A stretch of DNA of 64,000 nt from an uncultured Gammaproteobacteria bacterium. Its GTDB lineage: Bacteria; Patescibacteriota; Microgenomatia; UBA8517. The notes under the pieces were generated by a model that did no database searches, was not told the origin of the DNA, and worked only from the letters and a program-made list of their open reading frames with translations. The stretch is taken from NCBI GenBank assembly GCA_964635715.1, contig CAZWNZ010000001.1, positions 10,358 to 74,357 on the forward strand. Direction: 5' to 3'. The translations under genes and the position numbers were made by a program. This document shows, piece by piece, positions 719-49,704 of this stretch (within the stretch, counting starts at the first letter, position 1; each line of letters begins with the position of its first letter).

Positions 719-1360
719 TTAAAAACCAACAGTTGCTGTTAGCCCCAGGGGGATCTCCTGAGAATCTGATATTACGGCTCGGACGTAGAGCTTTTTCCCG
801 TCACTCAAAACTTTTGTAGTCTTTCCCTTCAATTCCATTCCCAAACTTGTTATTTTGACTTTTGCTTCCTTTTCCTCCTTGAAGCTTTTTATATCCTTCT
901 CCCCAATCTCAACTTCCACATAGTAGGAGGAGGAGTCAATTATTTTGAAAGAGGAACTGGCGGGAGTGATATTTATGCCGGGAACTACATTGCTATCATC
1001 CATCACTACTCCACCTACAGGAGAAAATAGATCACAGGAGTCCACCGCTGCTTTTGCAAGTTCCACACTTTTAACAGCAGCATTTAGCATTGCCTGTTTT
1101 TCCGTTTTCAGATATTTATCTATTGCCTCAGTTGGAGAGGGATTTTTCTGATTAAATATTTCAAAGTCCGCTCTCACCTTTTCAAAATCCGCCAGTTCTC
1201 TATCCAGTGTTGTTTGGGCAACTTTGCGGTCGAGAGAAGCCAGAAGGTTTCCTTTTCTGACTGTGTCACCGGTAAATTTTTTAACGGAAACAATTTTTCC
1301 TGAAGTTGCAAAACGAACATCAACAATACGCGCTTTTACTACTCCTTTAAAAGTAGTCAT
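719..1360 (-). CDS. HlyD-family membrane-fusion / efflux adaptor protein, apparently lacking the N-terminal TM anchor
   Basis: Split biotinyl-lipoyl hairpins (GKIVSVKKFTGDTVRKGNLLASLD ... SPVGGVVMDDSNVVPGINI) separated by a coiled-coil, followed by a beta-barrel segment. No TM helix at the N-terminus. Confidence 0.55.
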   Translation of the reverse strand: MTTFKGVVKARIVDVRFATSGKIVSVKKFTGDTVRKGNLLASLDRKVAQTTLDRELADFEKVRADFEIFNQKNPSPTEAIDKYLKTEKQAMLNAAVKSVELAKAAVDSCDLFSPVGGVVMDDSNVVPGINITPASSSFKIIDSSSYYVEVEIGEKDIKSFKEEKEAKVKITSLGMELKGKTTKVLSDGKKLYVRAVISDSQEIPLGLTATVGF

Positions 1361-1536: not shown

Positions 1537-1567
1537 TCTTTAACGATGCATTGATGTATGATAAAAG
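1537..1567. repeat. 31-bp direct repeat, 5' copy flanking TrpR-like gene 1 (contains tandem ATGCAT dyads and the gene start codons)
   Basis: tctttaacgatgcattgatgtatgataaaag, near-identical to 1992-2022. Confidence 0.8.
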
Positions 1568-1976
1568 TATGCCACAAGTTTCAAAACGGAGAATAGATCC
1601 AAAAGTTGAGAAAGAACTTCAAAATTCACTGGCCTACATAATTAAAGATTTAAAAACAAAAGATGAGGTTAACGAATTTTTATCGTCAGCTCTTACCGAC
1701 ACTGAAAGAGTGATGGTCGCAAAAAGAGTATTGACCGCATATCTTCTTGAAAATGGAGTTGAAGAAAGCCAAATTGCCCAAACTCTTAAACTAACTAATT
1801 CAACAATAACCCGTTTTAAAATGTGGATCAAATTACATAAAAGTGGCTTTGATCTAGTTTTCAAAAAACTAAAGAAAAAAGGAGTTGAAGACGTTGGGAA
1901 ACAGGTACTTTTAAAAATTCTTAAATACGCTTCGAATGCAGCATTTGGCCGCGTCCCAACACCAAAAATTCCCTAA
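1551..1976 (+). CDS. TrpR/YerC-like helix-turn-helix DNA-binding protein (paralogue 1 of 3)
   Basis: LSSALTDTERVMVAKRVLTAYLLENGVEESQIAQTLKLTNSTITR matches the Trp-repressor helix pattern (LTPxERxxxxxRxxIxxxLL...SxxTIxRGS). True start is probably the ATG at 1554 or 1569. Confidence 0.6.
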   Translation: MMYDKSMPQVSKRRIDPKVEKELQNSLAYIIKDLKTKDEVNEFLSSALTDTERVMVAKRVLTAYLLENGVEESQIAQTLKLTNSTITRFKMWIKLHKSGFDLVFKKLKKKGVEDVGKQVLLKILKYASNAAFGRVPTPKIP

Positions 1977-1991
1977 TAGTTAATTTCCACT

Positions 1992-2022
1992 TCTTTAACG
2001 ATGCATTGATGCATGATAAAAA
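1992..2022. repeat. 31-bp direct repeat, 3' copy flanking TrpR-like gene 1
   Basis: tctttaacgatgcattgatgcatgataaaaa; 29/31 match to 1537-1567. Confidence 0.8.
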
Positions 2023-10674: not shown

Positions 10675-11490
10675 TTAAGCTTGTGCTTGTTCTTCAGTTT
10701 TGGCTGCTTCCGGTTTTGACTCTTCTTTAACCTCTTGTCCTTCACCTTTTACACCCTCTTCTGCCGGAGCTTCGCCTTCAACCACCTGTGCTATCACTTC
10801 TTTTTCAAGATCTTTCAAGCTACCTGATTTAATTCTTTTAATCGTTACCATGGATCCTGTGGTGCCGGGAATTTGTCCCGAAATTTCAATTGTATTTGTT
10901 TTTTCATCGACTGAAATTATGTGCAAATTTTTGATGGTAACAGTCTCTCCACCCATTCTTCCAGCCATTTTTTTGCCTTTATAGACTCTTCCCGGTGTCG
11001 TAGTCTGCCCGATTGATCCCGGAGCACGTTCACGATCGCTTTGTCCATGGGTTCTTGGCCCACCTCTAAAGTGCCATCTTTTGACAACTCCTGCAAAACC
11101 TTTCCCCTTAGAAGTTCCTGTGACGGCAACAATGTCTCCGCGCTTTAATACTTCGGCAGCATTGACAATATCTCCAACTTTAAGAGCGGAACCTGTTACG
11201 GATTCCGGTTCTTTCTCAAGCCTAACCTCTCTAAGATATCTCGGGAATGAATTTGGAATTTGGAATTTGGAATTTGGAATTTTTTTGAGGTGTCCTTGAA
11301 GGGGTTTTGAAGTATTTTTTGCAGGCCTATCTGAAAATCCGAGCTGAATTGCCCAGTATCCGTCGCGTTCCTCTTTTTTAATTTGTGTCACGACACAAGG
11401 GCCCGCAATTACTTTTGTAACGGGAATCCTAAAACCTTGAACAAAGGTTTGTGAACATATTCCTTTCGATCCTAAAATAGTATTAATCAT
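10675..11490 (-). CDS. rplC: 50S ribosomal protein L3 with loop insertion encoded by a heptanucleotide repeat and an acidic C-terminal tail
   Basis: TGTSKGKGFAGVVKRWHFRGGPRTHGQS...APGSIGQTTTPGRVYKGKKMAGRMG L3 core. Insertion KIPNSKFQIPNSFPRY lies in the loop equivalent to E. coli AGVEAGRGLWEF. Confidence 0.92.
   Translation of the reverse strand: MINTILGSKGICSQTFVQGFRIPVTKVIAGPCVVTQIKKEERDGYWAIQLGFSDRPAKNTSKPLQGHLKKIPNSKFQIPNSFPRYLREVRLEKEPESVTGSALKVGDIVNAAEVLKRGDIVAVTGTSKGKGFAGVVKRWHFRGGPRTHGQSDRERAPGSIGQTTTPGRVYKGKKMAGRMGGETVTIKNLHIISVDEKTNTIEISGQIPGTTGSMVTIKRIKSGSLKDLEKEVIAQVVEGEAPAEEGVKGEGQEVKEESKPEAAKTEEQAQA
11251..11282. repeat. (atttgga)x4.5 heptanucleotide microsatellite inside the rplC coding sequence
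   Basis: atttggaatttggaatttggaatttggaattt encodes IPNSKFQIPNS on the minus strand. Confidence 0.85.
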
Positions 11491-11540
11491 TTTGGTTTTG
11501 GAGCCCGTTAGATGTGAACACTATCTAATGGGCCATTAAA

Positions 11541-11570
11541 CAACAAAAAAGCGCCTTTGCCAGGCGCTTC
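11541..11570 (-). terminator. rho-independent terminator downstream of the membrane-protein gene 11675-12664
   Basis: Minus-strand reading aagcgcc tggcaa aggcgct followed by tttttt (plus aaaaaa at 11544-11549). Confidence 0.6.
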
Positions 11571-11674
11571 CCCTGAAGCCATCCTTTCAAAGACTCTTAA
11601 TCGTGGCTAGTGTTTATCATAACCACTATCATGTTATGAGGGGAATTATATCAGAACTTCTTGAGCTCCGCAAG

Positions 11675-12664
11675 CTAAATTGCAACAATGATGGTTGAAA
11701 TCACAATGAGAAGAACAACCGGAATTGTTTTTTTGATATTTTTATAGAATATTAGCCAAAAAATAGGCACAATTGGTGCTAAATACCTGCCTAAATTTTC
11801 CAAAAAAGGAACAAGATTGATACCAAGCGTAAAAATATAAAAAGCAGTAATAATCCAAAATTCCAAGCCACGGGATTTGAGAGCCTTCCAATATAAACAA
11901 ATATAAAAAGTAATGTAAAAAAAACCCGATAGCAAAATTCTGTACCAATGCCACCTTGCAGCTCTTATAAGATCGTAGAAAAGCTGTCCCATCCCAAAGC
12001 TAATTCTTGAAGGATGCAGCGCCTCGTAAGTAAAGAGCTGATAAAAAGGATTTTTTATTCCGAAAAAATACACGTTATAGATCACTAAAAGCACAACCGG
12101 AATCAAAAAATATGGTAGGTTAAGAACAGCCTTTTTAATTTTTTTTGTCATGATCATATAAAACACCATGCCAGCAAATATGGCTATTCCTGCAATTCTG
12201 AAAGTAACCGAGATACCCAAGACCAGAAACGCCCAACGAAATAAATCTTTTTTATAGAAATAAATTGCAAGAAGCATCAAAAATACAAAAGGCATCTCGG
12301 TATCAATTAGGGAAGACAAATTGAGTAATATCGGTGGAAAAATTAGTGGCAAAAAACTATATTTTGAACCCGTTAATTTATAGAGCAAAACATAGGATCC
12401 GATTAAAGACAATATTACAACTACATAACCTGCCAGAAATGAATTTCCTGTTATAAAATGAAGCAAATAAATGACAATTGGAAGCCCGGGCAAAAGGCGC
12501 GATTCAAAAAATGAAATTTTTCCAACATTTAAAGGAAGTGTCTCCGAATAACCAACATAGTTATCTTGCTGAACAATCCCATTATTAAATCTAATAAATG
12601 CCAAAAACACCGATATTATTACGCAAAGAATAAACAATTTATGTTTGTATATTTTTGTAAGCAT
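11675..12664 (-). CDS. polytopic membrane protein, putative glycosyltransferase/polymerase (GT-C, EpsG or Wzy-like fold); inserted between rpsJ and rplC
   Basis: About 10 predicted TM helices; aromatic and Pro-rich loops (FESRLLPGLPIVIY...). No soluble domain. Adjacent to a sugar-nucleotide epimerase. Confidence 0.35.
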   Translation of the reverse strand: MLTKIYKHKLFILCVIISVFLAFIRFNNGIVQQDNYVGYSETLPLNVGKISFFESRLLPGLPIVIYLLHFITGNSFLAGYVVVILSLIGSYVLLYKLTGSKYSFLPLIFPPILLNLSSLIDTEMPFVFLMLLAIYFYKKDLFRWAFLVLGISVTFRIAGIAIFAGMVFYMIMTKKIKKAVLNLPYFLIPVVLLVIYNVYFFGIKNPFYQLFTYEALHPSRISFGMGQLFYDLIRAARWHWYRILLSGFFYITFYICLYWKALKSRGLEFWIITAFYIFTLGINLVPFLENLGRYLAPIVPIFWLIFYKNIKKTIPVVLLIVISTIIVAI

Positions 12665-12690
12665 TCGGAAGTATTATACTCTGAAACAAC

Positions 12691-13566
12691 ATGATACTTG
12701 TCACCGGTTCTTCTGGATTTATCGGCAGTAAACTTTTACCCCTTATTAGAAAGAAATATCCAAAAGAAGTTGTTACGGTTTTGAACAAAAATAATTGCAA
12801 TTTAGTAACCGGTCGGGGGCTATCGAAGCTTTCGGGAAAACCAAAAATAGTCTTTCATCTTGCTGCAACAACTGACACATCCAAAAGAGATCAGAGATGT
12901 AACGATATTGGAACCAAAAACCTTTTGAAGGCACTTCCAAGCCTCGGTCCAAAAACGCATTTTATATATACAAGCTCTCAAGTTGTATATTCGGGGAGAA
13001 GCGACACCGGAAAATTAATCACTTCAAAAACAGCTACTGCCACGAATAACAAGTACGGCAAAACTAAACTCATGGCAGAAAAAATTCTTCTTAGGGCCGC
13101 TAAAGAAAAAGGATTCAAACTGACGATAATAAGACTTCCAACTGTTTGGGGAGAAAATCCCAGAAAAAATGCTTTTTTGAATTTTTTGAGAAAACTTACT
13201 AAAAAGAATTCTATATTTTCAAGATTTGACTGGCCGGGCAAAGTTGCTCTTGTCTATGTTGAGGACGCAGTAAAATATATACTTAAGGCGGGGGAAATGC
13301 ATCCACAAACCATTTCTATAGCCGTAGAAAATCTAACTCTTGCCCAAATTTTTGAAAAAAATTACATAAATCAAGGTAAAATTTATAAGCAAATTAAGGT
13401 TCCGAACTTTGTTTGGAGCTTAGCTAGATTCTTAAGACCGTATTTAAAATATTTTGAATTTATTCTTCCAACAAGTCTTTTTAATTATCTTTGGAGAACA
13501 TCAATAATTGTGGATAGTCCCCTTGCCTGCAAGGTAAACATAAAAGGTAAAAAATTTGCCGGATAA
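12691..13566 (+). CDS. NAD-dependent epimerase/dehydratase (extended SDR family)
   Basis: N-terminal Rossmann motif MILVTGSSGFIGSKL; about 290 aa, typical of UDP-sugar epimerases and dehydratases. Confidence 0.7.
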   Translation: MILVTGSSGFIGSKLLPLIRKKYPKEVVTVLNKNNCNLVTGRGLSKLSGKPKIVFHLAATTDTSKRDQRCNDIGTKNLLKALPSLGPKTHFIYTSSQVVYSGRSDTGKLITSKTATATNNKYGKTKLMAEKILLRAAKEKGFKLTIIRLPTVWGENPRKNAFLNFLRKLTKKNSIFSRFDWPGKVALVYVEDAVKYILKAGEMHPQTISIAVENLTLAQIFEKNYINQGKIYKQIKVPNFVWSLARFLRPYLKYFEFILPTSLFNYLWRTSIIVDSPLACKVNIKGKKFAG

Positions 13567-13705
13567 TTGGTTACGGCTACCAGGAATGGGTTTTGCACCC
13601 ATTGGATTGTTAAAATGTTTTATTGTTAAATGGTTGTATGGGTAAATATCTGAAACTAAATGATATTAGCTCCTACAAAAAGGCGTTTACTTTATCAAAT
13701 TATGT

Positions 13706-13930
13706 ATGGAATATTGTAGACAAATGGAATTTCCTAGCAAAAAAGATAAGATTAACTTTTATCGTATGAGTAGGGGTTCAACTTTGGAATGTCTTGACTG
13801 GACTCAAAAGGCATATGTTAGGAAACTGATTACCAAATCTGAATATAAAAACATCATGTCAGATTTAAAAAGCATGCCCCTAGAAATTAATCAACTAATT
13901 AAATTCACGAATTTGAAGCTAAAAGAATAG
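13706..13930 (+). pseudogene. four-helix-bundle protein (TIGR02436 / '23S rRNA intervening-sequence protein' family), C-terminal fragment only
   Basis: EYCRQMEFPSKKDKINFYRMSRGSTLECLDWTQKAYVRKLI...EINQLIKF matches the family C-terminal half (AEGxxRxSxKEFxxFLxIARGSxxEL...). The N-terminal ~50 aa are missing, and an out-of-frame remnant (KKAFTLSNYVWNIVDKWNFLAKK) lies upstream. Confidence 0.45.
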
Positions 13931-13965
13931 CAATTTGACAATTTAACAATACAACAATTGAGATC

Positions 13966-14274
13966 TTACATCTTAATCTCAATGGAGACACCTGCCGGGA
14001 GGTCCATGTTTCCAAGAGAATCCACCGTACGGGGAGAGGGATCGATAATATCAATTAAACGTTTGTGAACTAAAATTTCAAAGTGTTCTTGGGCATCTTT
14101 GTCCGTAAAAGGAGACTCTTTAACAGCCATCATGGATCTTTTTGTGGGGAGAGGAATGGGGCCGATTATTTTTGCACCAGTGGCTAGAGCGGTATCAACA
14201 ATTTTTGCTGCCGCCTCATCTACTACTCTATGATCGTAGCTTTTGAGCTTTACTCTAAGTCTTGAGCTTGCCAT
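13966..14274 (-). CDS. rpsJ: 30S ribosomal protein S10
   Basis: RLRVKLKSYDHRVVDEAAAKIVDTALATGAKIIGPIPLPTK...; immediately downstream of tuf. Confidence 0.94.
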   Translation of the reverse strand: MASSRLRVKLKSYDHRVVDEAAAKIVDTALATGAKIIGPIPLPTKRSMMAVKESPFTDKDAQEHFEILVHKRLIDIIDPSPRTVDSLGNMDLPAGVSIEIKM

Positions 14275-14310: not shown

Positions 14311-15504
14311 TTATTTAATAATTTTCGTAATGACTCCATCACCTACGGTGTGGCCGCCTTCACGAATTGCAAATCTAAATCCTTCCTCTATTGCGACCGG
14401 TTGAATAAGCTTCACGGTCATTTTGGCATTGTCTCCAGGCATGACCATTTCAATTCCTTCCGGAAGTGTGGCTTCACCTGTAATGTCAGCTGTCTTGATG
14501 TAGAACTGTGGCTTGTAGCCTGTAAAGAACGGTGTGTGGCGTCCACCTTCCTCTTTGCTCAAGATATAAACTTCTGCTTCAAAATCTGTGTGGGGGGTAA
14601 GAGAACCCGGCTTGGCCAAAACCTGTCCACGCTCTACCTGGCTCTTCTCAATTCCACGAAGTAGAACTCCTACGTTATCACCCGCCTGAGCCTCATCAAG
14701 AGTCTTTCTAAACATTTCAAGTCCTGTAACAATAGACTTTTGAGTTTCCTTAAGACCAACAATTTCAATTTCTTCGTTAACTTTAATTATTCCACGATCA
14801 ACTCTTCCGGTCACAACTGTACCACGACCTTGAATCGTAAAAACATCTTCAACAGCCATCAAGAAAGGTTTGTCTGTTTCACGAACCGGATCCGGAATAT
14901 AGGTATCAACTGCATTCATTAGCTCTTCAATTTTCTTTTCTGCTTCTGCATCACCTTCTATTGCCTTAAGGGCTGATCCTCTGATAACCGGAACTTCATC
15001 ACCCGGATAACCGTATTTCTTAAGAAGTTCACGCACATCAGCTTCAACTAAATCAATAAGTTCAGGGTCAGTTACCATGTCACATTTATTTAAGAAGACC
15101 ACAATTGCCGGAACATTAACCTGTTTAGCCAAAATAACGTGTTCACGAGTTTGAGGCATTGGGCCGTCTGCCGCAGACACAACCAAAATTGCTCCATCCA
15201 TCTGAGCTGCACCGGTGATCATGTTCTTGATGTAATCGGCATGACCTGGAGCATCTATATGAGCATAATGCCTTTTTTCTGTTTCGTACTCCTGATGTGA
15301 AAGATTAATTGTAACTCCACGCTCTTTCTCTTCGGGAGCTGAGTCAATATCTTCATATTTTTTTGCTGCGGCTAAACCTTTCTTGGACAAAACCATCGTG
15401 ATAGCGCTGGTGAGGGTGGTTTTACCATGATCGACATGACCAATGGTACCAATGTTCACATGGGGTTTGCTTCTTTCAAAGTGTTGTTTTGCTTCTCCTG
15501 CCAT
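14311..15504 (-). CDS. tuf: elongation factor Tu
   Basis: [39 protein letters not shown] and related EF-Tu motifs; 397 aa. Confidence 0.97.
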
Positions 15505-15639: not shown

Positions 15640-17808
15640 TTACCCTCTTGGCATTTCAACCTTACCGCTTTTTGCCACAACTTGGGCCGTAATGTGGCTG
15701 GGAACTATATCATAATGCGATGGTTCGACATAAGCCCTGGCTCTACCTTGAGTTAAGGACCTAAGCTTGGTGGCATATCCTGAAAGTTCGGCTAAAGGTG
15801 CCTGGGCATAAATTACAGTCTCGCCTGCTTTCTCTTCTGAGCCGGAAACCTGCGCACGTTTACTGGAAAGGTCTCCTATTACATCTCCCATATATTCACC
15901 GGGTGTAAAGACCTCAACTTTCATAATAGGTTCAAGAAGGGTCGGGTTACTGTGTTTAAATGCATCCTCAAGAGCCATTGACCCTGCAATTTTGAAAGCC
16001 ATTTCAGAAGAATCAACCTCATGGTAACTTCCGTCATAAACAACAACCCTCATGTCAACCATCGGGAATCCTGCCATAACTCCGTTCTCCATTTTTTCAA
16101 CAATCCCTTTCTCAATAGCCGGAACATATTCTGACGGAATAGCCCCACCTTTGATTTCGCTTTTGAATTCAAATCCCTCACCGCGTCCGAGAGGCTCAAG
16201 TCTAAGCAAACAGTGTCCATATTGCCCGCGACCACCTGTCTGCCTGATGTATTTTCCCTCACCTTGTCCGATCTTACCAATAGTCTCTTTATAGGCAACC
16301 TGGGGTGCACCTGTACTGGCAATAACATTAAATTCTCTTTTCATACGATCTACCAGTACTTCAAGCTGAAGTTCTCCCATACCGCTAATAATGGTTTGTC
16401 CGGTTTCGGGGTTGCTTTTGATCCTAAACGTCGGATCCTCATCCGAAAGTTTATTTAAAGCTATTCCCATTTTTTCCTGATCAATCTTAGTGGCAGGTTC
16501 AATCGCCAAAGAAATAACAGGTTCCGGGAAATTAATTGATTCAAGAATAATCGGATGAGTAGAATCACAAATCGTATCACCGGTTGAAGTGTCTTTTGTT
16601 CCCACAACTGCTACAATTTCACCGGCAAATGCTTCTTCAATAAGTTCTCTTTGGTCTGCATGAAGCAAAACCAGCTTGCCGATTCTCTCGTTTTTTTGAT
16701 TTGAAGTGTTGTAAACCTCTTGTCCGGTTTTAATTGATCCTGAATAAACTCTGACATAAACCAAACGTCCGACGTGAGGATCTGTCATTACTTTAAAAGC
16801 AAGGGCACTCATCGGAGCTTCGTTTTTCCTGTCACGCGTTTCCTCAGTGCCCGTCTTTGGGTTAGTACCGACAACGGGAGGCAAGTCGGTAGGAGACGGC
16901 AAATATTCGACTACACCATTCAAAAGAAGCTGGCTTTCAGCCGTACGATTATCACCGCCAAACACCGGGAAGAATTTTCCGGTTATAACTCCTTTTCTAA
17001 TCGCTCTTTTAATAACTGACTCATCCGGTTCTTTTCCTTCAAGGTATAGATTCAGGGCTTCATCATCAAACTCGGAGACTTTCTCTATTAGCTCGGTTCT
17101 GTATTTCTTAGCCATATCAACTAAATCTGCCGGAATTTCCTCTTCGACCAAATCATGATCTTCTACCGCTTTGTACGTAAAAGCCTTCATTTTTATAAGA
17201 TCTACCACTCCCCTATGTTCATGCTCGAGTCCGATTGGAATTATGATCGGTGAAGCATTGGCTTTGAGTCTTTCACGAATTGACTTGATTGCAGATTCGA
17301 AATCTGCACCAATTAAATTTAACTTATTAAGAACACAAATTCTCGGAACATTGTATTTGTCAGCCTGTCTCCAAACCGTTTCGGATTGACTTTCAACTCC
17401 AGTTCTGCCGTCAAAGACCATAACAGCTCCATCCAAAACTCTCAAAGATCGCTCAACCTCTGCTGTAAAGTCGATGTGGCCGGGGGTGTCGATAATATTA
17501 ATTCTGTAATGCCCGGCCTCAACTGAAGTACTTTCTTTAATATCCCAAAAAGCAGTGATAGCAGCCGAAACAATTGTTATTCCACGTTCCCGCTCTTGAG
17601 CCATCCAATCCGTAACAGTTGTTCCTTCATCAACTGAACCCAATTTATAAGTGCGCCCTGTTTCAAAAAGAAGACGTTCTGTAGTTGTAGTTTTGCCGGC
17701 ATCGATATGGGCAATAATTCCAATGTTTCTAATTTTTTCATAGGAAACATTGCGATCTTTTGTCGCAGTAATTACTATACTAGCCTTTTTCTTTGCTACT
17801 TCTGCCAT
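15640..17808 (-). CDS. fusA: elongation factor G
   Basis: AHIDAGKTTTTERLLF...; 722 aa; str-operon position. Confidence 0.97.
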   Translation of the reverse strand: MAEVAKKKASIVITATKDRNVSYEKIRNIGIIAHIDAGKTTTTERLLFETGRTYKLGSVDEGTTVTDWMAQERERGITIVSAAITAFWDIKESTSVEAGHYRINIIDTPGHIDFTAEVERSLRVLDGAVMVFDGRTGVESQSETVWRQADKYNVPRICVLNKLNLIGADFESAIKSIRERLKANASPIIIPIGLEHEHRGVVDLIKMKAFTYKAVEDHDLVEEEIPADLVDMAKKYRTELIEKVSEFDDEALNLYLEGKEPDESVIKRAIRKGVITGKFFPVFGGDNRTAESQLLLNGVVEYLPSPTDLPPVVGTNPKTGTEETRDRKNEAPMSALAFKVMTDPHVGRLVYVRVYSGSIKTGQEVYNTSNQKNERIGKLVLLHADQRELIEEAFAGEIVAVVGTKDTSTGDTICDSTHPIILESINFPEPVISLAIEPATKIDQEKMGIALNKLSDEDPTFRIKSNPETGQTIISGMGELQLEVLVDRMKREFNVIASTGAPQVAYKETIGKIGQGEGKYIRQTGGRGQYGHCLLRLEPLGRGEGFEFKSEIKGGAIPSEYVPAIEKGIVEKMENGVMAGFPMVDMRVVVYDGSYHEVDSSEMAFKIAGSMALEDAFKHSNPTLLEPIMKVEVFTPGEYMGDVIGDLSSKRAQVSGSEEKAGETVIYAQAPLAELSGYATKLRSLTQGRARAYVEPSHYDIVPSHITAQVVAKSGKVEMPRG

Positions 17809-17896
17809 ATCAGTTTGAATCTAGAATCTTGAATGTGGAATCTAGAGGACAAGAGTGATTTTAACAGGAGATTGAATCTAAATCAATAACAGATGA

Positions 17897-18330
17897 TTAA
17901 AATTTTCTATTTACTAGATGCCTATCTGTGTAAATAAGAACGTTTTGACCTTTGAAATTTAGATTATCTCTCTTTACTTTGAAACCTTGATTTTTTGCAT
18001 AATCAATTAGTGATTCTAACCAATTTACATTTGGTTTTTTAACTAAGGGTTCATCAATTACACAACAGGGTCAACCACGGTTACATCCCAGCCGTTTATA
18101 TTTAACAAAAGTGAAAGCAATCCTTTTCCACCACCAACATCTAAGGCTTTGGTGGGTTTGTATTTTTGGCTAAGCCACATCTGTAAAAGCTGAAAACGAA
18201 ACTTGTTGTTCAATCTTCGTTTTGTATTCATTAATCGGATTATACATTTTTTTAAATAATGAATTATATTATCTATTTTAATATTAATTAGTTCGATGGT
18301 TCGAACTATGGTACTATAAATATATGACAC
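17897..18330 (-). pseudogene. class I SAM-dependent methyltransferase remnant, frameshifted after motif I
   Basis: ORF 18058-18330 ends ...ALDVGGGKGLLSLLLNINGWDVTVVDPVV* (motif I). A second frame continues DEPLVKKPNVNWLESLIDYAKNQGFKVKRDNLNFKGQNVLIYTD... to a stop at 17897-17899. Confidence 0.45.
18289..18309. repeat. 21-bp direct repeat, 5' copy flanking TrpR-like gene 2 (8-4-8 dyad tagttcga-tggt-tcgaacta)
   Basis: tagttcgatggttcgaactat, identical to 18765-18785. Confidence 0.85.
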
Positions 18331-18767
18331 AAGTTTCTAGACATTTTATGAATCCTGATATTGAAAAGCGAGTTTATGAGGTATTTATAGAATCTGTTAA
18401 AAACACCAGAAATTCAAATGAAGTAATTGATTTTTTAAATGACTTACTTTCCCCTGTCGAAAAAATTATGATGGCAAAAAGAGTGGCCGTCGCATTTCTT
18501 TTACTTCAGGATAAATATACCTATGACCAAATTTCCAAAACCGTAAAGGTTAGTAGGGGTACAATTGCAAAAATTCATACCACTTTTGCTCTACAAGGAA
18601 AGGGGTATAGAAAAATTCTGGGAGATATTCTTAAAAGGAAAGTTGCGAAAATTGCATTATCGGAACTATTAGACGCGATAACTCTTCTTCCTCCAAAAGG
18701 TGCAAATCTTGGAGAATGGAAAAAGATGAAACGAAATGACAAATTAAAGAGAGAAAGTCCAATATAG
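18324..18767 (+). CDS. TrpR/YerC-like helix-turn-helix DNA-binding protein (paralogue 2 of 3)
   Basis: FLNDLLSPVEKIMMAKRVAVAFLLLQDKYTYDQISKTVKVSRGTIAKI (TrpR helix pattern). Confidence 0.6.
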   Translation: MTQVSRHFMNPDIEKRVYEVFIESVKNTRNSNEVIDFLNDLLSPVEKIMMAKRVAVAFLLLQDKYTYDQISKTVKVSRGTIAKIHTTFALQGKGYRKILGDILKRKVAKIALSELLDAITLLPPKGANLGEWKKMKRNDKLKRESPI

Positions 18768-18785
18768 TTCGATGGTTCGAACTAT
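18765..18785. repeat. 21-bp direct repeat, 3' copy flanking TrpR-like gene 2 (overlaps its TAG stop)
   Basis: tagttcgatggttcgaactat. Confidence 0.85.
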
Positions 18786-18884
18786 CGAACTACTTCGTGA
18801 GATAATCAACGATTAGATTAATTTAGTCTAATAAAAGAAACTATTAAGAAAATTACTTGAAGTCAATAGCAAAAAATGCCGATT

Positions 18885-19364
18885 CTACCAACGAAAATGA
18901 CTGAAGGCCTTATTTGCTTCTGCCACCCTTTCCATATCAGTTCTTTTCTTCACTGCCGCACCTTCGCCTTTTGCTGCATCCATTATTTCCGCTGCCAATT
19001 TTGCACCGTAAGTGTGAAATTCCGAGTTGGGTCGGGAATTAGCTGCAGCAACCAACCATCTAATAGCTAATGAGTCGCGTCTCACTCCGCGAACAGCCTG
19101 AGGAACCTGATATGCAGCACCACCGATTCTTCTTGGACGAACCTCCATAGTTGGTTTAATATTTTCCAGAGCCTGATTAAAAACTTTCAACGGATCACCA
19201 TCTGTTTTTTCTTTAATAATGTCGAATGCTTCGTAAACCTCATGTCTGGCCACTGATTTCTTACCATCAAACATACTCCTGTTAATAAGTTTAGTAACAA
19301 GCCTGCTACTGTAAAACGGATCAGGTTCTACGACTCTTACTTTAATTGCTCCTTTTCTTGCCAT
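18885..19364 (-). CDS. rpsG: 30S ribosomal protein S7
   Basis: S7 family (...MFDGKKSVARHEVYEAFD...AVRGVRRDSLAIRWLV...). Confidence 0.94.
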   Translation of the reverse strand: MARKGAIKVRVVEPDPFYSSRLVTKLINRSMFDGKKSVARHEVYEAFDIIKEKTDGDPLKVFNQALENIKPTMEVRPRRIGGAAYQVPQAVRGVRRDSLAIRWLVAAANSRPNSEFHTYGAKLAAEIMDAAKGEGAAVKKRTDMERVAEANKAFSHFRW

Positions 19365-19367
19365 ACT

Positions 19368-19784
19368 TTATTTTGATGCCCCTTTCTTTGCTCCATATTT
19401 GCTTCTTCCCGCCTGACGGCCGGAAACTCCGGTTGTATCATATCTGCCTCTAACTACATGGTATTTGACTCCGGGAAGGTCCTTAACACGCCCTCCTCTT
19501 ACCATAACAATTGAATGCTCCGCAAGTTCATGTCCTTCTCCCGGAATATAAGCTGTAATTTCCTGTTTATTGGAAAGTCTTACTCTGGCAACTTTACGAA
19601 GAGCAGAGTTCGGTTTTTTAGGTGTCATCGTACGGACAGCCAGGACAACCCCTCTTTTAAATGACGAGTGGCTATTGGAAAATTTTCTTGTCACAGCATT
19701 GAAAGACCTCTTTAATGCTGTCGTTTTAGTCTTTCTGAGAACTCTCTTTCTGCCGGTTCTTACTAATTGGTTTATTGTTGGCAT
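19368..19784 (-). CDS. rpsL: 30S ribosomal protein S12
   Basis: [14 protein letters not shown]...[18 protein letters not shown]... Confidence 0.95.
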
Positions 19785-28972: not shown

Positions 28973-29234
28973 TCACGTTTCGATTCTTTTGTCGCTTGCC
29001 CGCAAGGGTTCAAGTATCAGGAATCTAGCTACTTAAAAAGCAGCATTCCGAGCACAGTTTAAGTATGCCCAGAGTGCTGCCTTCAAATAGCTTTAGAGCA
29101 AGTTATCTCTTTGAAAGTTAAAGAACTTTTTGGCTAAGCTCAAGGCTATAGCCAAACTCGAATTCCAAGCAAATATAGAATTCAAGTATCCGATAGTATA
29201 ATATATCAGGGGCTAAAAATCCAGTGTATTACTG

Positions 29235-29612
29235 TTACGTAACACTAGTACACTTTGAGGATTGGCGGCTGGGTCGAAAATTATTTTTTTCAAATTTTTT
29301 ACTCCAAATAATACTAACCTCAACAAACCCTTTATTTATTAAATCTTGAGGTAAATTTTTAAAAGGACAACTACCAGCTCTCTCTAATTCACCAATAATC
29401 TTTCTTGCAATAGTAACTTGATTTTCGGTTGATTTTAAAACAGTGGCCATTTCACTAAGATTCAGGCCGGGAATACGCCTATGTTCCCAAAAATGATTTA
29501 CTAAATGAGCCGCACCATTTATATCCATTAATTGATTTTCCGGAAGGTCTTTAAGAAATGAGAGATCGAGTTCTTGTCTGGAATTGTCAGTTTCTTTTGA
29601 TTGCTCTACCAT
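29235..29612 (-). CDS. hypothetical protein, possible helix-turn-helix
   Basis: LNLSEMATVLKSTENQVTIARKIIGELERAG resembles an HTH; no confident family assignment. Confidence 0.3.
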   Translation of the reverse strand: MVEQSKETDNSRQELDLSFLKDLPENQLMDINGAAHLVNHFWEHRRIPGLNLSEMATVLKSTENQVTIARKIIGELERAGSCPFKNLPQDLINKGFVEVSIIWSKKFEKNNFRPSRQSSKCTSVT

Positions 29613-40637: not shown

Positions 40638-40655
40638 AAAATTGATCCTAAATAC

Positions 40656-40679
40656 TACATTACTATATAGTAATGTAGT
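40656..40679. repeat. perfect 24-bp palindrome ctacattactat|atagtaatgtag, same family as those flanking TrpR-like gene 3; orphan copy 16 nt upstream of the udg start
   Basis: Compare cttcaatactatatagtattgaag (49195-49218) and ctacaatactatatagtattgtag (49676-49699). Confidence 0.8.
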
Positions 40680-48878: not shown

Positions 48879-49194
48879 AAATCAAATACTCAATTCCAGA
48901 TACAAGTTTAACTCATTAAAGCTAAAAACTCAAGCTACATAAGTAAGTTAATTTTGAGTATTAGTCTTCCCGAACATCTGCTGAAGTTCTTTTTCCGTCG
49001 GGTTTCTTTTTTCCTATTCACATTTTTTCATTAACCTGCAAATAGGACAGTCATCAATAATACAATTATTGCTTGATACCATAATGGCGTCACCTACTTT
49101 TTTACTGGATGTTTTCATCCTACCGTTTATAAATTTATATCATTCAAATCTGCAAATATTCAAGTGATTATTTTTATGATATATTGAATATATA

Positions 49195-49218
49195 CTTCAA
49201 TACTATATAGTATTGAAG
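49195..49218. repeat. perfect 24-bp palindrome cttcaatactat|atagtattgaag, 4 nt upstream of the TrpR-like gene 3 start
   Basis: Self-complementary by inspection. Confidence 0.85.
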
Positions 49219-49222
49219 TGCT

Positions 49223-49672
49223 ATGACTAAAATTTCAAAATTGCCATTAAGATCTGATGTTTGGAATCGGATTTTTGATTTGTTCGTCAGTACCCTATCC
49301 AACCAAAGAGATAAAAAGAAATTATCAAATTTTATTAATGATTTTTTCTCGCCAACTGAAAGAATAATGTTTGCAAAAAGGTTGGCTATTGCGGTTCTGG
49401 TCGCAAAAGGCCAAGATTATCAAAGTATCCACGAAATTTTGAAAGTAAGTCCACCAACTATTGCAAAACTTAGTTTAAGAATCAAATATATGGGGGAGGG
49501 TTTAAACCCTGTTATTAGAGATATTTTTAAGAGTCAGGCGTTGCAAATTATATGGAAAGAAACTGAAGATCTGTTTGATTTGCCAACAAAAGGTAACTTA
49601 AAATCGCCCGAAAGATTTAAAAGAAAACTTCGAAGAGTGAAGCAAATTAATAAAATGAGATCGGAATTTTAA
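49223..49672 (+). CDS. TrpR/YerC-like helix-turn-helix DNA-binding protein (paralogue 3 of 3)
   Basis: FINDFFSPTERIMFAKRLAIAVLVAKGQDYQSIHEILKVSPPTIAKL. Confidence 0.6.
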   Translation: MTKISKLPLRSDVWNRIFDLFVSTLSNQRDKKKLSNFINDFFSPTERIMFAKRLAIAVLVAKGQDYQSIHEILKVSPPTIAKLSLRIKYMGEGLNPVIRDIFKSQALQIIWKETEDLFDLPTKGNLKSPERFKRKLRRVKQINKMRSEF

Positions 49673-49675
49673 CTA

Positions 49676-49704
49676 CTACAATACTATATAGTATTGTAGT
49701 TTTT
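49676..49704 (+). terminator. perfect 24-bp palindrome ctacaatactat|atagtattgtag plus TTTTT; 3' copy of the gene-3 flanking repeat and probable terminator
   Basis: Begins 3 nt after the TAA stop; followed by ttttt at 49700-49704. Confidence 0.6.

Follow-up and report, generated by a model that had tools for sequence, protein, structure and literature searches.

Why does a TrpR-like gene, enclosed by two copies of a palindromic repeat, lie between rpsG and fusA of a Patescibacterial str operon, and are its repeats the scars of an insertion or sites with a function of their own? The question is raised by a window of 64,000 nucleotides (the whole stretch of DNA that was analysed; G+C content 39%), whose closest relatives are Woesebacteria and other Patescibacteria of the Microgenomates group. 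On the minus strand of the window the gene order is rpoB, rpoC, rpsL, rpsG and, after a gap of 1076 nt, fusA, tuf, and rpsJ. An earlier note on this DNA had described the gap as an interruption of the operon by a plus-strand TrpR-like gene with flanking repeats and by the remnant of a methyltransferase gene. From the comparisons described below, the gap probably holds an old, lineage-specific insertion of a self-contained module, in which the gene of a TrpR/HisR-family repressor would be situated between two 28-bp operators of its own. This unit, hereafter module 2, comprises the following features:

18324-18767, plus strand: gene of a TrpR/HisR(YerC)-family regulator of 147 amino acids (aa), assigned by Pfam PF01371, fold, and orthologues
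18289-18316, no strand: upstream operator-like 28-bp dyad, TAGTTCGATGGTTC and GAACTATGGTACTA to the left and right of the centre, found by repeat search and orthologue comparison
18765-18792, no strand: downstream 28-bp dyad, TAGTTCGATGGTTC and GAACTATCGAACTA to the left and right of the centre, symmetric in 13 of 14 pairs

By sequence and modelled fold, the 147-aa protein is a member of the TrpR family. The open reading frame (ORF) 18324-18767 matches the Pfam family Trp_repressor (PF01371) with 48.4 bits (cut-off 27, E 9.7e-13), which bears out the earlier identification of a TrpR-like gene in the gap, and with 48.4, 39.6, and 41.0 bits all three TrpR-like proteins of the window exceed this cut-off. 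Its nearest sequences in the Protein Data Bank (PDB) are 3FRW, 3G1C, and 3KOR (E 4e-11 to 5e-9), followed by TrpR. The AlphaFold2 (AF2) model (predicted local distance difference test, pLDDT, 79.5) consists of the TrpR fold and two additional C-terminal helices, the latter at lower confidence. In a Foldseek search TrpR, 3FRW, 3G1C, and 3KOR hold the top ranks with a probability of 1.00 and target-normalised TM-scores of 0.65-0.82, the E-values of these TrpR-fold matches being just 4e-3 to 5e-2.

Exactly two occurrences of the 21-mer TAGTTCGATGGTTCGAACTAT were found, at 18289-18309 and 18765-18785, where shuffled sequences lead to an expectation of 0. The 3' copy opens with the TAG stop codon of the TrpR-like gene, and the perfect repeat on both sides of the gene is as the earlier note had stated. 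The 8-4-8 dyad that it had recognised within the 21-mer is also present, though the dyad shared by the family is a different and longer one of 28 bp, centred between TTC and GAA. The upstream dyad ends 7 nt before the ATG, overlaps the -10-like hexamer TACTAT, and is composed of a left arm of the downstream type (TAGTTCGATGG) and a right arm of the upstream type (CTATGGTACTA). The downstream dyad sits between the convergent TrpR-like and rpsG genes. The perfect identity over 21 bp looks like a derived patch of gene conversion between the two dyad copies; since its left arm is now of the downstream type, the upstream site would thereby have lost part of its symmetry, with 11 of 14 symmetric pairs compared to 14 of 14 in the related loci L002 and L003.

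All located proteins with 70-82% identity to the module-2 protein are encoded between rpsG and fusA, on the opposite strand and in the same orientation. Each of these orthologues has a 28-bp palindrome centred on TTCGAA, typically TAGTACCATGATTCGAATCATGGTACTA, just before its start codon and again just after its stop codon. In case of L002 and L003, the upstream palindrome, located at the same place as the upstream dyad of the window, is perfect in 14 of 14 pairs (TAGTACCAT(AG/GA)TTCGAA(CT/TC)ATGGTACTA). The downstream copies are more degenerate in L002 and L006. The slot between the TrpR-like gene and fusA varies in content: an ORF of 244 aa in L002, of 99 aa in L003, and of 145 aa on the other strand in L006 was found, or the slot is empty.

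The same bracketing recurs in the family, which comprises 4009 clusters at 50% identity (E <=0.001). A scan of one genome per species provided 46 loci, 45 of them non-redundant, from Woese-, Levy-, Davies-, Shapiro-, Azam-, and Giovannonibacteria and other Patescibacteria. A strong palindrome (score of at least 7) is located upstream within about 110 nt in 42 of 45 loci (93%) and downstream within about 90 nt in 34 of 45 (76%), compared to 1.6% (11 of 681) of the control windows taken from these loci. In about half of the loci, 3-9 nt separate the upstream copy from the ATG, and the downstream copy usually starts 0-14 nt past the stop codon, the two copies frequently being 100% identical over 27-32 nt, with a centre-to-centre spacing of 489 +/- 18 bp. 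Downstream copies are about equally frequent for convergent and for same-direction next genes, and in a subgroup with glycosyltransferase neighbours they lie 1-17 nt before the ATG of the next gene. The neighbours of the family genes are diverse housekeeping genes (ribosomal, NusA, GyrA, FolD, glycosyltransferase etc.), and palindrome pairs around most members, wherever these are located, fit putative operators better than insertion scars. As expected for the Trp repressor family, a perfect dyad of 26-28 bp over -10-like hexamers is situated upstream of 93% of the genes and represents a candidate operator; promoter matches overlap the upstream palindromes.

The symmetry of the palindromes is continuous through the centre and leaves no loop. 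Complementarity of pairs amounts to 95-100% at the four innermost positions and to 66-100% up to pair 14, and drops to background beyond. Since loop bases cannot pair, such complementarity of the four innermost pairs is not the result of selection for a hairpin or cruciform. The sequence of the palindrome differs between paralogues; orthologues keep this sequence, not merely its pairing, while the adjoining intergenic DNA diverges. Some family members have nested dyads that are spaced 8 bp apart. The residue aligned to Ala80 of TrpR, at the start of the recognition helix, tracks the palindrome centre: all 19 loci with Gly here have CG as the central step of the palindrome, compared to 2 of 27 loci with any other residue (Fisher p 5e-11, kinship of the loci ignored). 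In the Levy/Davies subgroup, the Gly members L023, L030, and L036 have TTCGAA, the others TTTAAA. Extra copies of the own palindrome were located at boundaries of neighbouring genes in six loci (L017:1684, L019:3147, L040:3211, L046:3217, L053:4950, and L054:5021). At these loci, the same dyad thus recurs between the members of runs of two or three neighbouring genes.

How the module came to lie between rpsG and fusA was addressed by a metagenome scan based on S7, which yielded 80 relatives with 72-89% S7 identity, about 67 loci of which reach fusA. The rpsG-fusA gap measures 13-95 nt in 30 of the ~67 loci, many of which share a conserved spacer of about 56 nt, and 135 nt to 2.8 kb in the remaining loci. 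A TrpR-like gene is present in the gap of three of the ~67 loci and of one further locus that ends before fusA. All of these belong to the L135 group, whose protein is 53% identical to that of module 2 and is again encoded between TTCGAA-centred palindromes. Contiguous rpsG and fusA being the common state, the module is an insertion in evolutionary terms, and the view of a split str operon holds with respect to most relatives. Gaps of 13 nt to 2.8 kb with unrelated inserts mark the rpsG-fusA junction as a hot spot at which Woesebacteria-like lineages gain and lose genes. Among L062-L141, a tight junction with the ~56-nt spacer occurs in many lineages, as opposed to a widened form with a fusA promoter.

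The insertion is old, because its synonymous sites are as saturated as those of the flanking genes: identity at fourfold sites between orthologues is 0.35-0.57 for the TrpR-like gene, compared to 0.20-0.56 for S7, S12, EF-G, and EF-Tu. A recent horizontal transfer of the module was considered and rejected, as there is no clear excess of fourfold-site identity over the flanking genes. In a four-marker tree, the window groups at 99% bootstrap with L072, L075, and L081, all of them TrpR-less, and the other carriers are placed elsewhere, deeper nodes being weakly supported. The patchy presence possibly arose via losses, repeated gains, or exchange by homologous recombination. In the 30 TrpR-less rpsG-fusA junctions no related solo palindrome was detected, and thus the repeats travel with the gene and do not represent a duplicated target sequence. 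The earlier note had reasoned that an intact methyltransferase without repeats in related genomes would indicate a lineage-typical intergenic gene rather than an insertion; the outcome of this check is mixed, as relatives do carry the TrpR-like gene, but together with the repeats and without the methyltransferase, the slot being filled by unrelated genes or empty.

Could the unit be, or recently have been, a mobile cassette, with the palindromes as repeats at its ends or attachment sites and with the spacers of housekeeping operons as targets? The tight bracketing of the gene (about 7 nt and 0 nt) would suit a cassette, as would the fact that each palindrome is a direct and an inverted repeat at once, the patchy presence at rpsG-fusA with the window grouped next to three gene-less lineages, the three modules in one 64-kb stretch, all among core genes, and the sheer number of family clusters. 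However, no transposase, recombinase, integrase or HUH motif is found at the module, whose TrpR-like ORF stands alone between housekeeping genes, and the paralogues of the window are just 29-36% identical to each other, each with conserved synteny. Synonymous divergence equals that of the flanks, the empty sites hold no single copy of the repeat, and a family-alignment scan of 2.9 million viral contigs recovered no relatives. Among the window paralogues and the scanned family loci there are no near-identical copies of a module at different sites or in different contexts; L051 and L052, considered as a recent duplication, turned out to be syntenic variants. No tRNA or tmRNA gene that might serve as an integration site lies within the window. 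We regard a mobile cassette as distinctly improbable, and the earlier proposal that the repeats are the ends of a recently inserted cassette did not hold, given orthologues with the same site, orientation, and palindromes, saturated synonymous sites, and the lack of a solo palindrome and of a recombinase. An outside chance remains for a related reading, in which palindrome, gene, and palindrome form a self-propagating regulatory module that duplicates as a whole unit and splits core operons into parts with promoters of their own. Its landing sites would be intergenic spacers (rpsG-fusA, upstream of nusA, and in a ribosomal-protein cluster) and the bound palindromes would act as programmable insulators or roadblocks. 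If true, this would mean a modular rewiring of operons suited to very small cells, and the patchy presence would reflect gain and loss of modules.

The other explanations concern the palindromes themselves. If they act as hairpins, of RNA or DNA, the 3' copy would serve as a terminator or stabiliser of the regulator mRNA, possibly a two-way terminator that insulates it from the operon, the 5' copy would stop transcription from outside or form a 5' stem-loop, and the copies would be identical only through gene conversion. The folding energies predicted for the palindromes are indeed -10 to -15 kcal/mol (z -2.7 to -5.4), the upstream copy of module 2 coincides with a terminator-like match on the minus strand, TTTTT follows the downstream copy of module 3, T-runs follow several extra copies (L017), and symmetric compensatory changes are seen. 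On the other hand, the innermost 3-4 pairs, which could not pair in a loop, are 95-100% complementary, a T-run follows just about 4 of about 36 downstream copies (judged by eye), and many stems are nearly pure A/T. If transcribed, the downstream dyad of module 2 would fold to -14.8 kcal/mol; no U-tract follows it, and the G+C-rich stem-loop with U-tract of an intrinsic terminator was not found there. Hairpins would also leave unexplained why sequence and not only pairing is kept in orthologues, why a recognition-helix residue tracks the palindrome centre, and why 5' and 3' copies are alike yet paralogues unlike, so that we consider this explanation unlikely. For the remaining proposal, that the two identical palindromes are recombination substrates whose inversion or deletion switches the regulator gene or the operon, speak the identity over 21-32 bp and the signs of gene conversion between the copies of the window. 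It is highly improbable in view of a single orientation in all orthologues at the rpsG-fusA site, the absence of a recombinase nearby, and TrpR-less junctions without a leftover palindrome.

Several observations weigh against operators as well. Promoter-like matches are no commoner than in shuffled sequence, and helical phasing of the centre-to-centre spacing is not significant (p 0.07-0.4). The symmetric compensatory changes of module 3 and of L032-L038 would also fit a hairpin constraint, and in L032-L038 the upstream and downstream copies co-change with an unchanged recognition helix, which may reflect a hairpin role or homogenisation of the copies via gene conversion. The downstream copies at the rpsG-fusA site may be decaying, given their degeneracy in L002 and L006. 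The function assigned to the dyads and to the protein is deduced from sequence throughout, and so is that of the second, putative operator as a functional site between convergent genes. Leaderless transcription, considered due to the gap of 3-8 nt between palindrome and ATG, was dropped as not arguable from an absent Shine-Dalgarno (SD) motif: SD-like motifs precede just 6 of 46 genes of the window, and since the lineage is generally devoid of them, their absence is uninformative with regard to leaderless transcripts. The lineage seems not to rely on SD pairing. Many start codons of the window are preceded by an A/T-rich sequence similar to TTTAGAAT.

If the palindromes are operators, a TrpR-family dimer, or tandem dimers, would bind the upstream dyad, thereby cover the core promoter of its own gene and repress it. 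The same protein would bind the 3' dyad. At the rpsG-fusA site, the likeliest roles of this 3' dyad would be that of a second, cooperative operator, with a loop of about 480 bp, or that of a protein roadblock that keeps transcription reading through from rpsG out of the opposed gene. In relatives with a same-direction next gene, the 3' copy lies just ahead of that gene and would probably control it. Downstream of the module, fusA, tuf, and rpsJ would be transcribed from a conserved promoter of their own, and the methyltransferase fragment would be decaying cargo in a variable slot. No convincing terminator of rpsG was detected, the fold of the region being no better than that of shuffles (z -0.7), and an Rfam search of 17600-19100 (E up to 1) gave no match. 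The distance from the upstream dyad to the fusA promoter is about 400 nt in the window compared to about 38 nt to the -35 hexamer in L008, i.e., this geometry is not conserved across orthologues.

The remaining features of the gap and the adjacent genes are:

17897-18231, minus strand: pseudogene of an S-adenosylmethionine (SAM) methyltransferase (182-aa Patescibacterial family), from homologue search and alignment
17858-17886, minus strand: fusA promoter candidate TTGATT-N17-(TG)TTAAAAT, from a consensus scan
19368-19784, minus strand: rpsL
18885-19364, minus strand: rpsG (ribosomal protein S7), convergent with the TrpR-like gene
15640-17808, minus strand: fusA (EF-G), followed by tuf and rpsJ
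14311-15504, minus strand: tuf
13966-14274, minus strand: rpsJ

The methyltransferase gene had been described as a frameshifted pseudogene. It is a pseudogene, but a simple frameshift does not account for it; instead, an internal deletion has shifted the frame. Residues 1 to about 55 are encoded from 18231 to about 18067 and residues 128-182 at 18070-17897 in another frame, i.e., about 72 codons are gone near 18064-18072. In a multiple alignment, the retained parts share 75-81% identity with intact homologues. Pfam yielded no match for the second frame alone, and the C-terminus was recognised by homologue search and alignment. Translation with the alternative genetic-code tables 4 and 25 does not restore the frame, and no second copy of the gene is present in the window. 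In other genomes the intact homologues occur in unrelated contexts. The slot ORFs of L002, L003, and L006, examined as possible relatives, show no relationship to the methyltransferase and gave no Pfam match. Due to the varying contents of the slot, the methyltransferase fragment is considered private to the lineage of the window.

The earlier note had predicted that fusA needs a promoter of its own and had pointed to a TTGATT-N17-TAAAAT candidate. In the promoter scan, TTGATT and TAAAAT, separated by 17 nt and with an upstream TG, were recovered at 17886-17858 on the minus strand, and the block is conserved in the window, L003, L006, and L008. It is also kept in L076, L081, L082, and L083, where the junction is TrpR-less and widened. 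Conservation of the predicted promoter across lineages supports a separate fusA-tuf-rpsJ transcript in those lineages that possess the block.

Two further modules and one additional palindrome were located elsewhere in the window:

1537-2021, plus strand: module 1, TrpR-like gene 1569-1976 with flanking 30-nt repeat
49194-49700, plus strand: module 3, TrpR-like gene 49223-49672 between two perfect 26-bp palindromes
40654-40679, no strand: third module-3 palindrome ACTACATTACTATATAGTAATGTAGT, perfect, 26 bp, 9 kb from module 3

All three TrpR-like genes are thus laid out alike on the plus strand among minus-strand core genes, and each has a repeat of its own, which measures 27-30 nt in modules 1 and 3. 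In case of module 1, ATG 1569 (MPQVSK) is the probable start of the gene, whose end lies at 1976; the 30-nt repeat TCTTTAACGATGCATTGATG(T/C)ATGATAAAA holds two ATGCAT dyads 8 bp apart. The palindromes of module 3, at 49194-49219 and 49675-49700, are one symmetric pair of changes apart. A promoter match (TTGAAT-16-TATAGT) overlaps the upstream one. The additional palindrome at 40654-40679 is a probable extra operator. A metallophosphoesterase gene stops 6 nt ahead of it and a UDG-family gene starts with its ATG 20 nt beyond, and a single pair of symmetric substitutions sets the palindrome apart from the 49675 copy. Each module's palindrome has 2-3 copies per 64 kb. Altogether, six long loop-free palindromes were counted in the 64 kb (0-2 in shuffles), four of which belong to modules 2 and 3.

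Two other repeats were inspected. The 32-bp near-palindrome AGTGTATTACTGTTACGTAACACTAGTACACT at 29223-29254, with a TACGTA centre, overlaps the 3' end of ORF 29235-29612 and is situated upstream of a cold-shock-domain gene. It is in the style of the family operators (cf. L037) and may be the target of a paralogue encoded outside the window. The 32-nt inverted repeat CATATATTCTTTGGACGAGCAAAGAATATATG at 650-681 is located just downstream of an HlyD-like gene (719-1360, minus strand). With most of its central 6 nt unpaired, it resembles an ordinary hairpin of the terminator type and differs from the loop-free dyads of the family. Between module 1 and the ribosomal-protein cluster (2023-2480), the sole ORF (91 aa) has no Pfam match, and this region may represent a further variable slot with a decayed gene. 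A split also affects the S10 operon (11490-13966), where rpsJ (13966-14274) is set apart from rplC (10675-11490) by a 329-aa gene of unknown function and, on the plus strand, by an NAD-epimerase gene (12691-13566) and a small ORF (13706-13930) that resembles the 23S rRNA intervening-sequence protein.

Patescibacteria are almost wholly uncultivated and little is known of their gene regulation. If the palindromes are operators, a large family (about 4000 clusters at 50% identity, several paralogues per genome) would have binding sites that can be read from the sequence. Each gene would be labelled with its own site, twice, and regulons could be reconstructed by palindrome searches of complete genomes. 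The match between recognition helix and operator centre would then amount to a natural code, if a small one, for the specificity of the TrpR fold. Where the rpsG-fusA junction is split, fusA gains a predicted promoter of its own. The module, as read from its sequence, would overturn no known principle.

Among known systems, lambda/186-type immunity regions resemble the module in that a repressor gene is situated between its own operators, with the same look where the neighbours point outwards. This likeness is one of layout only: the protein family is another, nothing phage-related is present, there is one site per side, and looping, by which the operators of those regions cooperate, is here only proposed. 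REP/RAYT and IS200/IS605 elements likewise combine a gene of about 150 aa with a palindrome at each end and with paralogue-specific palindromes, but the protein encoded here is a helix-turn-helix repressor and not an HUH tyrosine transposase, and the dyads are perfect and loop-free with just 2-3 copies per 64 kb. Neither an HUH-Y1 protein nor the many dispersed palindromes of a REPtron were found. In the literature searched, which left most subscription journals outside its scope, no description of a gene bracketed by two such palindromes was found.

Closest are the relatives of the protein itself. TrpR and HisR bind palindromes of about 20 bp and often regulate their own genes, and HisR has lineage-specific motifs (PMC9413887). 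HisR (B. subtilis YerC; 3G1C, 3FRW, and 3KOR; PMC9413887) provides the nearest solved sequences and is likewise a palindrome binder that often regulates itself. It is, however, usually single-copy, shorter than 110 aa, and dedicated to histidine genes via cacTTTAnnnnnnTAAAgtg, whereas the present genes have unrelated housekeeping neighbours, other motifs, and two bracketing sites; neither a regulon of histidine biosynthesis or transport nor the motif was found. With E. coli TrpR (trp, aroH, and trpR operators) the protein shares Pfam family and fold, i.e., that of a small, helical, dimeric repressor with a palindromic operator over promoters including that of its own gene, an operator which is predicted in the present case. 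The outer operator bases are similar (TGTA...TACA or TAGTAC...GTACTA), and the nested dyads 8 bp apart of some members correspond to the tandem binding of TrpR. In contrast to E. coli TrpR, the putative operator measures 26-28 bp instead of 20, and the protein, extended by about 40 residues, has a conserved LPPKG motif and two more helices at its C-terminus. Many paralogues occur per genome, a second copy of the putative operator lies past the stop codon, and there is no tie to tryptophan genes. The features that set the module apart from both TrpR and HisR are the predicted 28-bp operator, the C-terminal extension, the many paralogues per genome, and the position of the gene between two copies of its putative operator.

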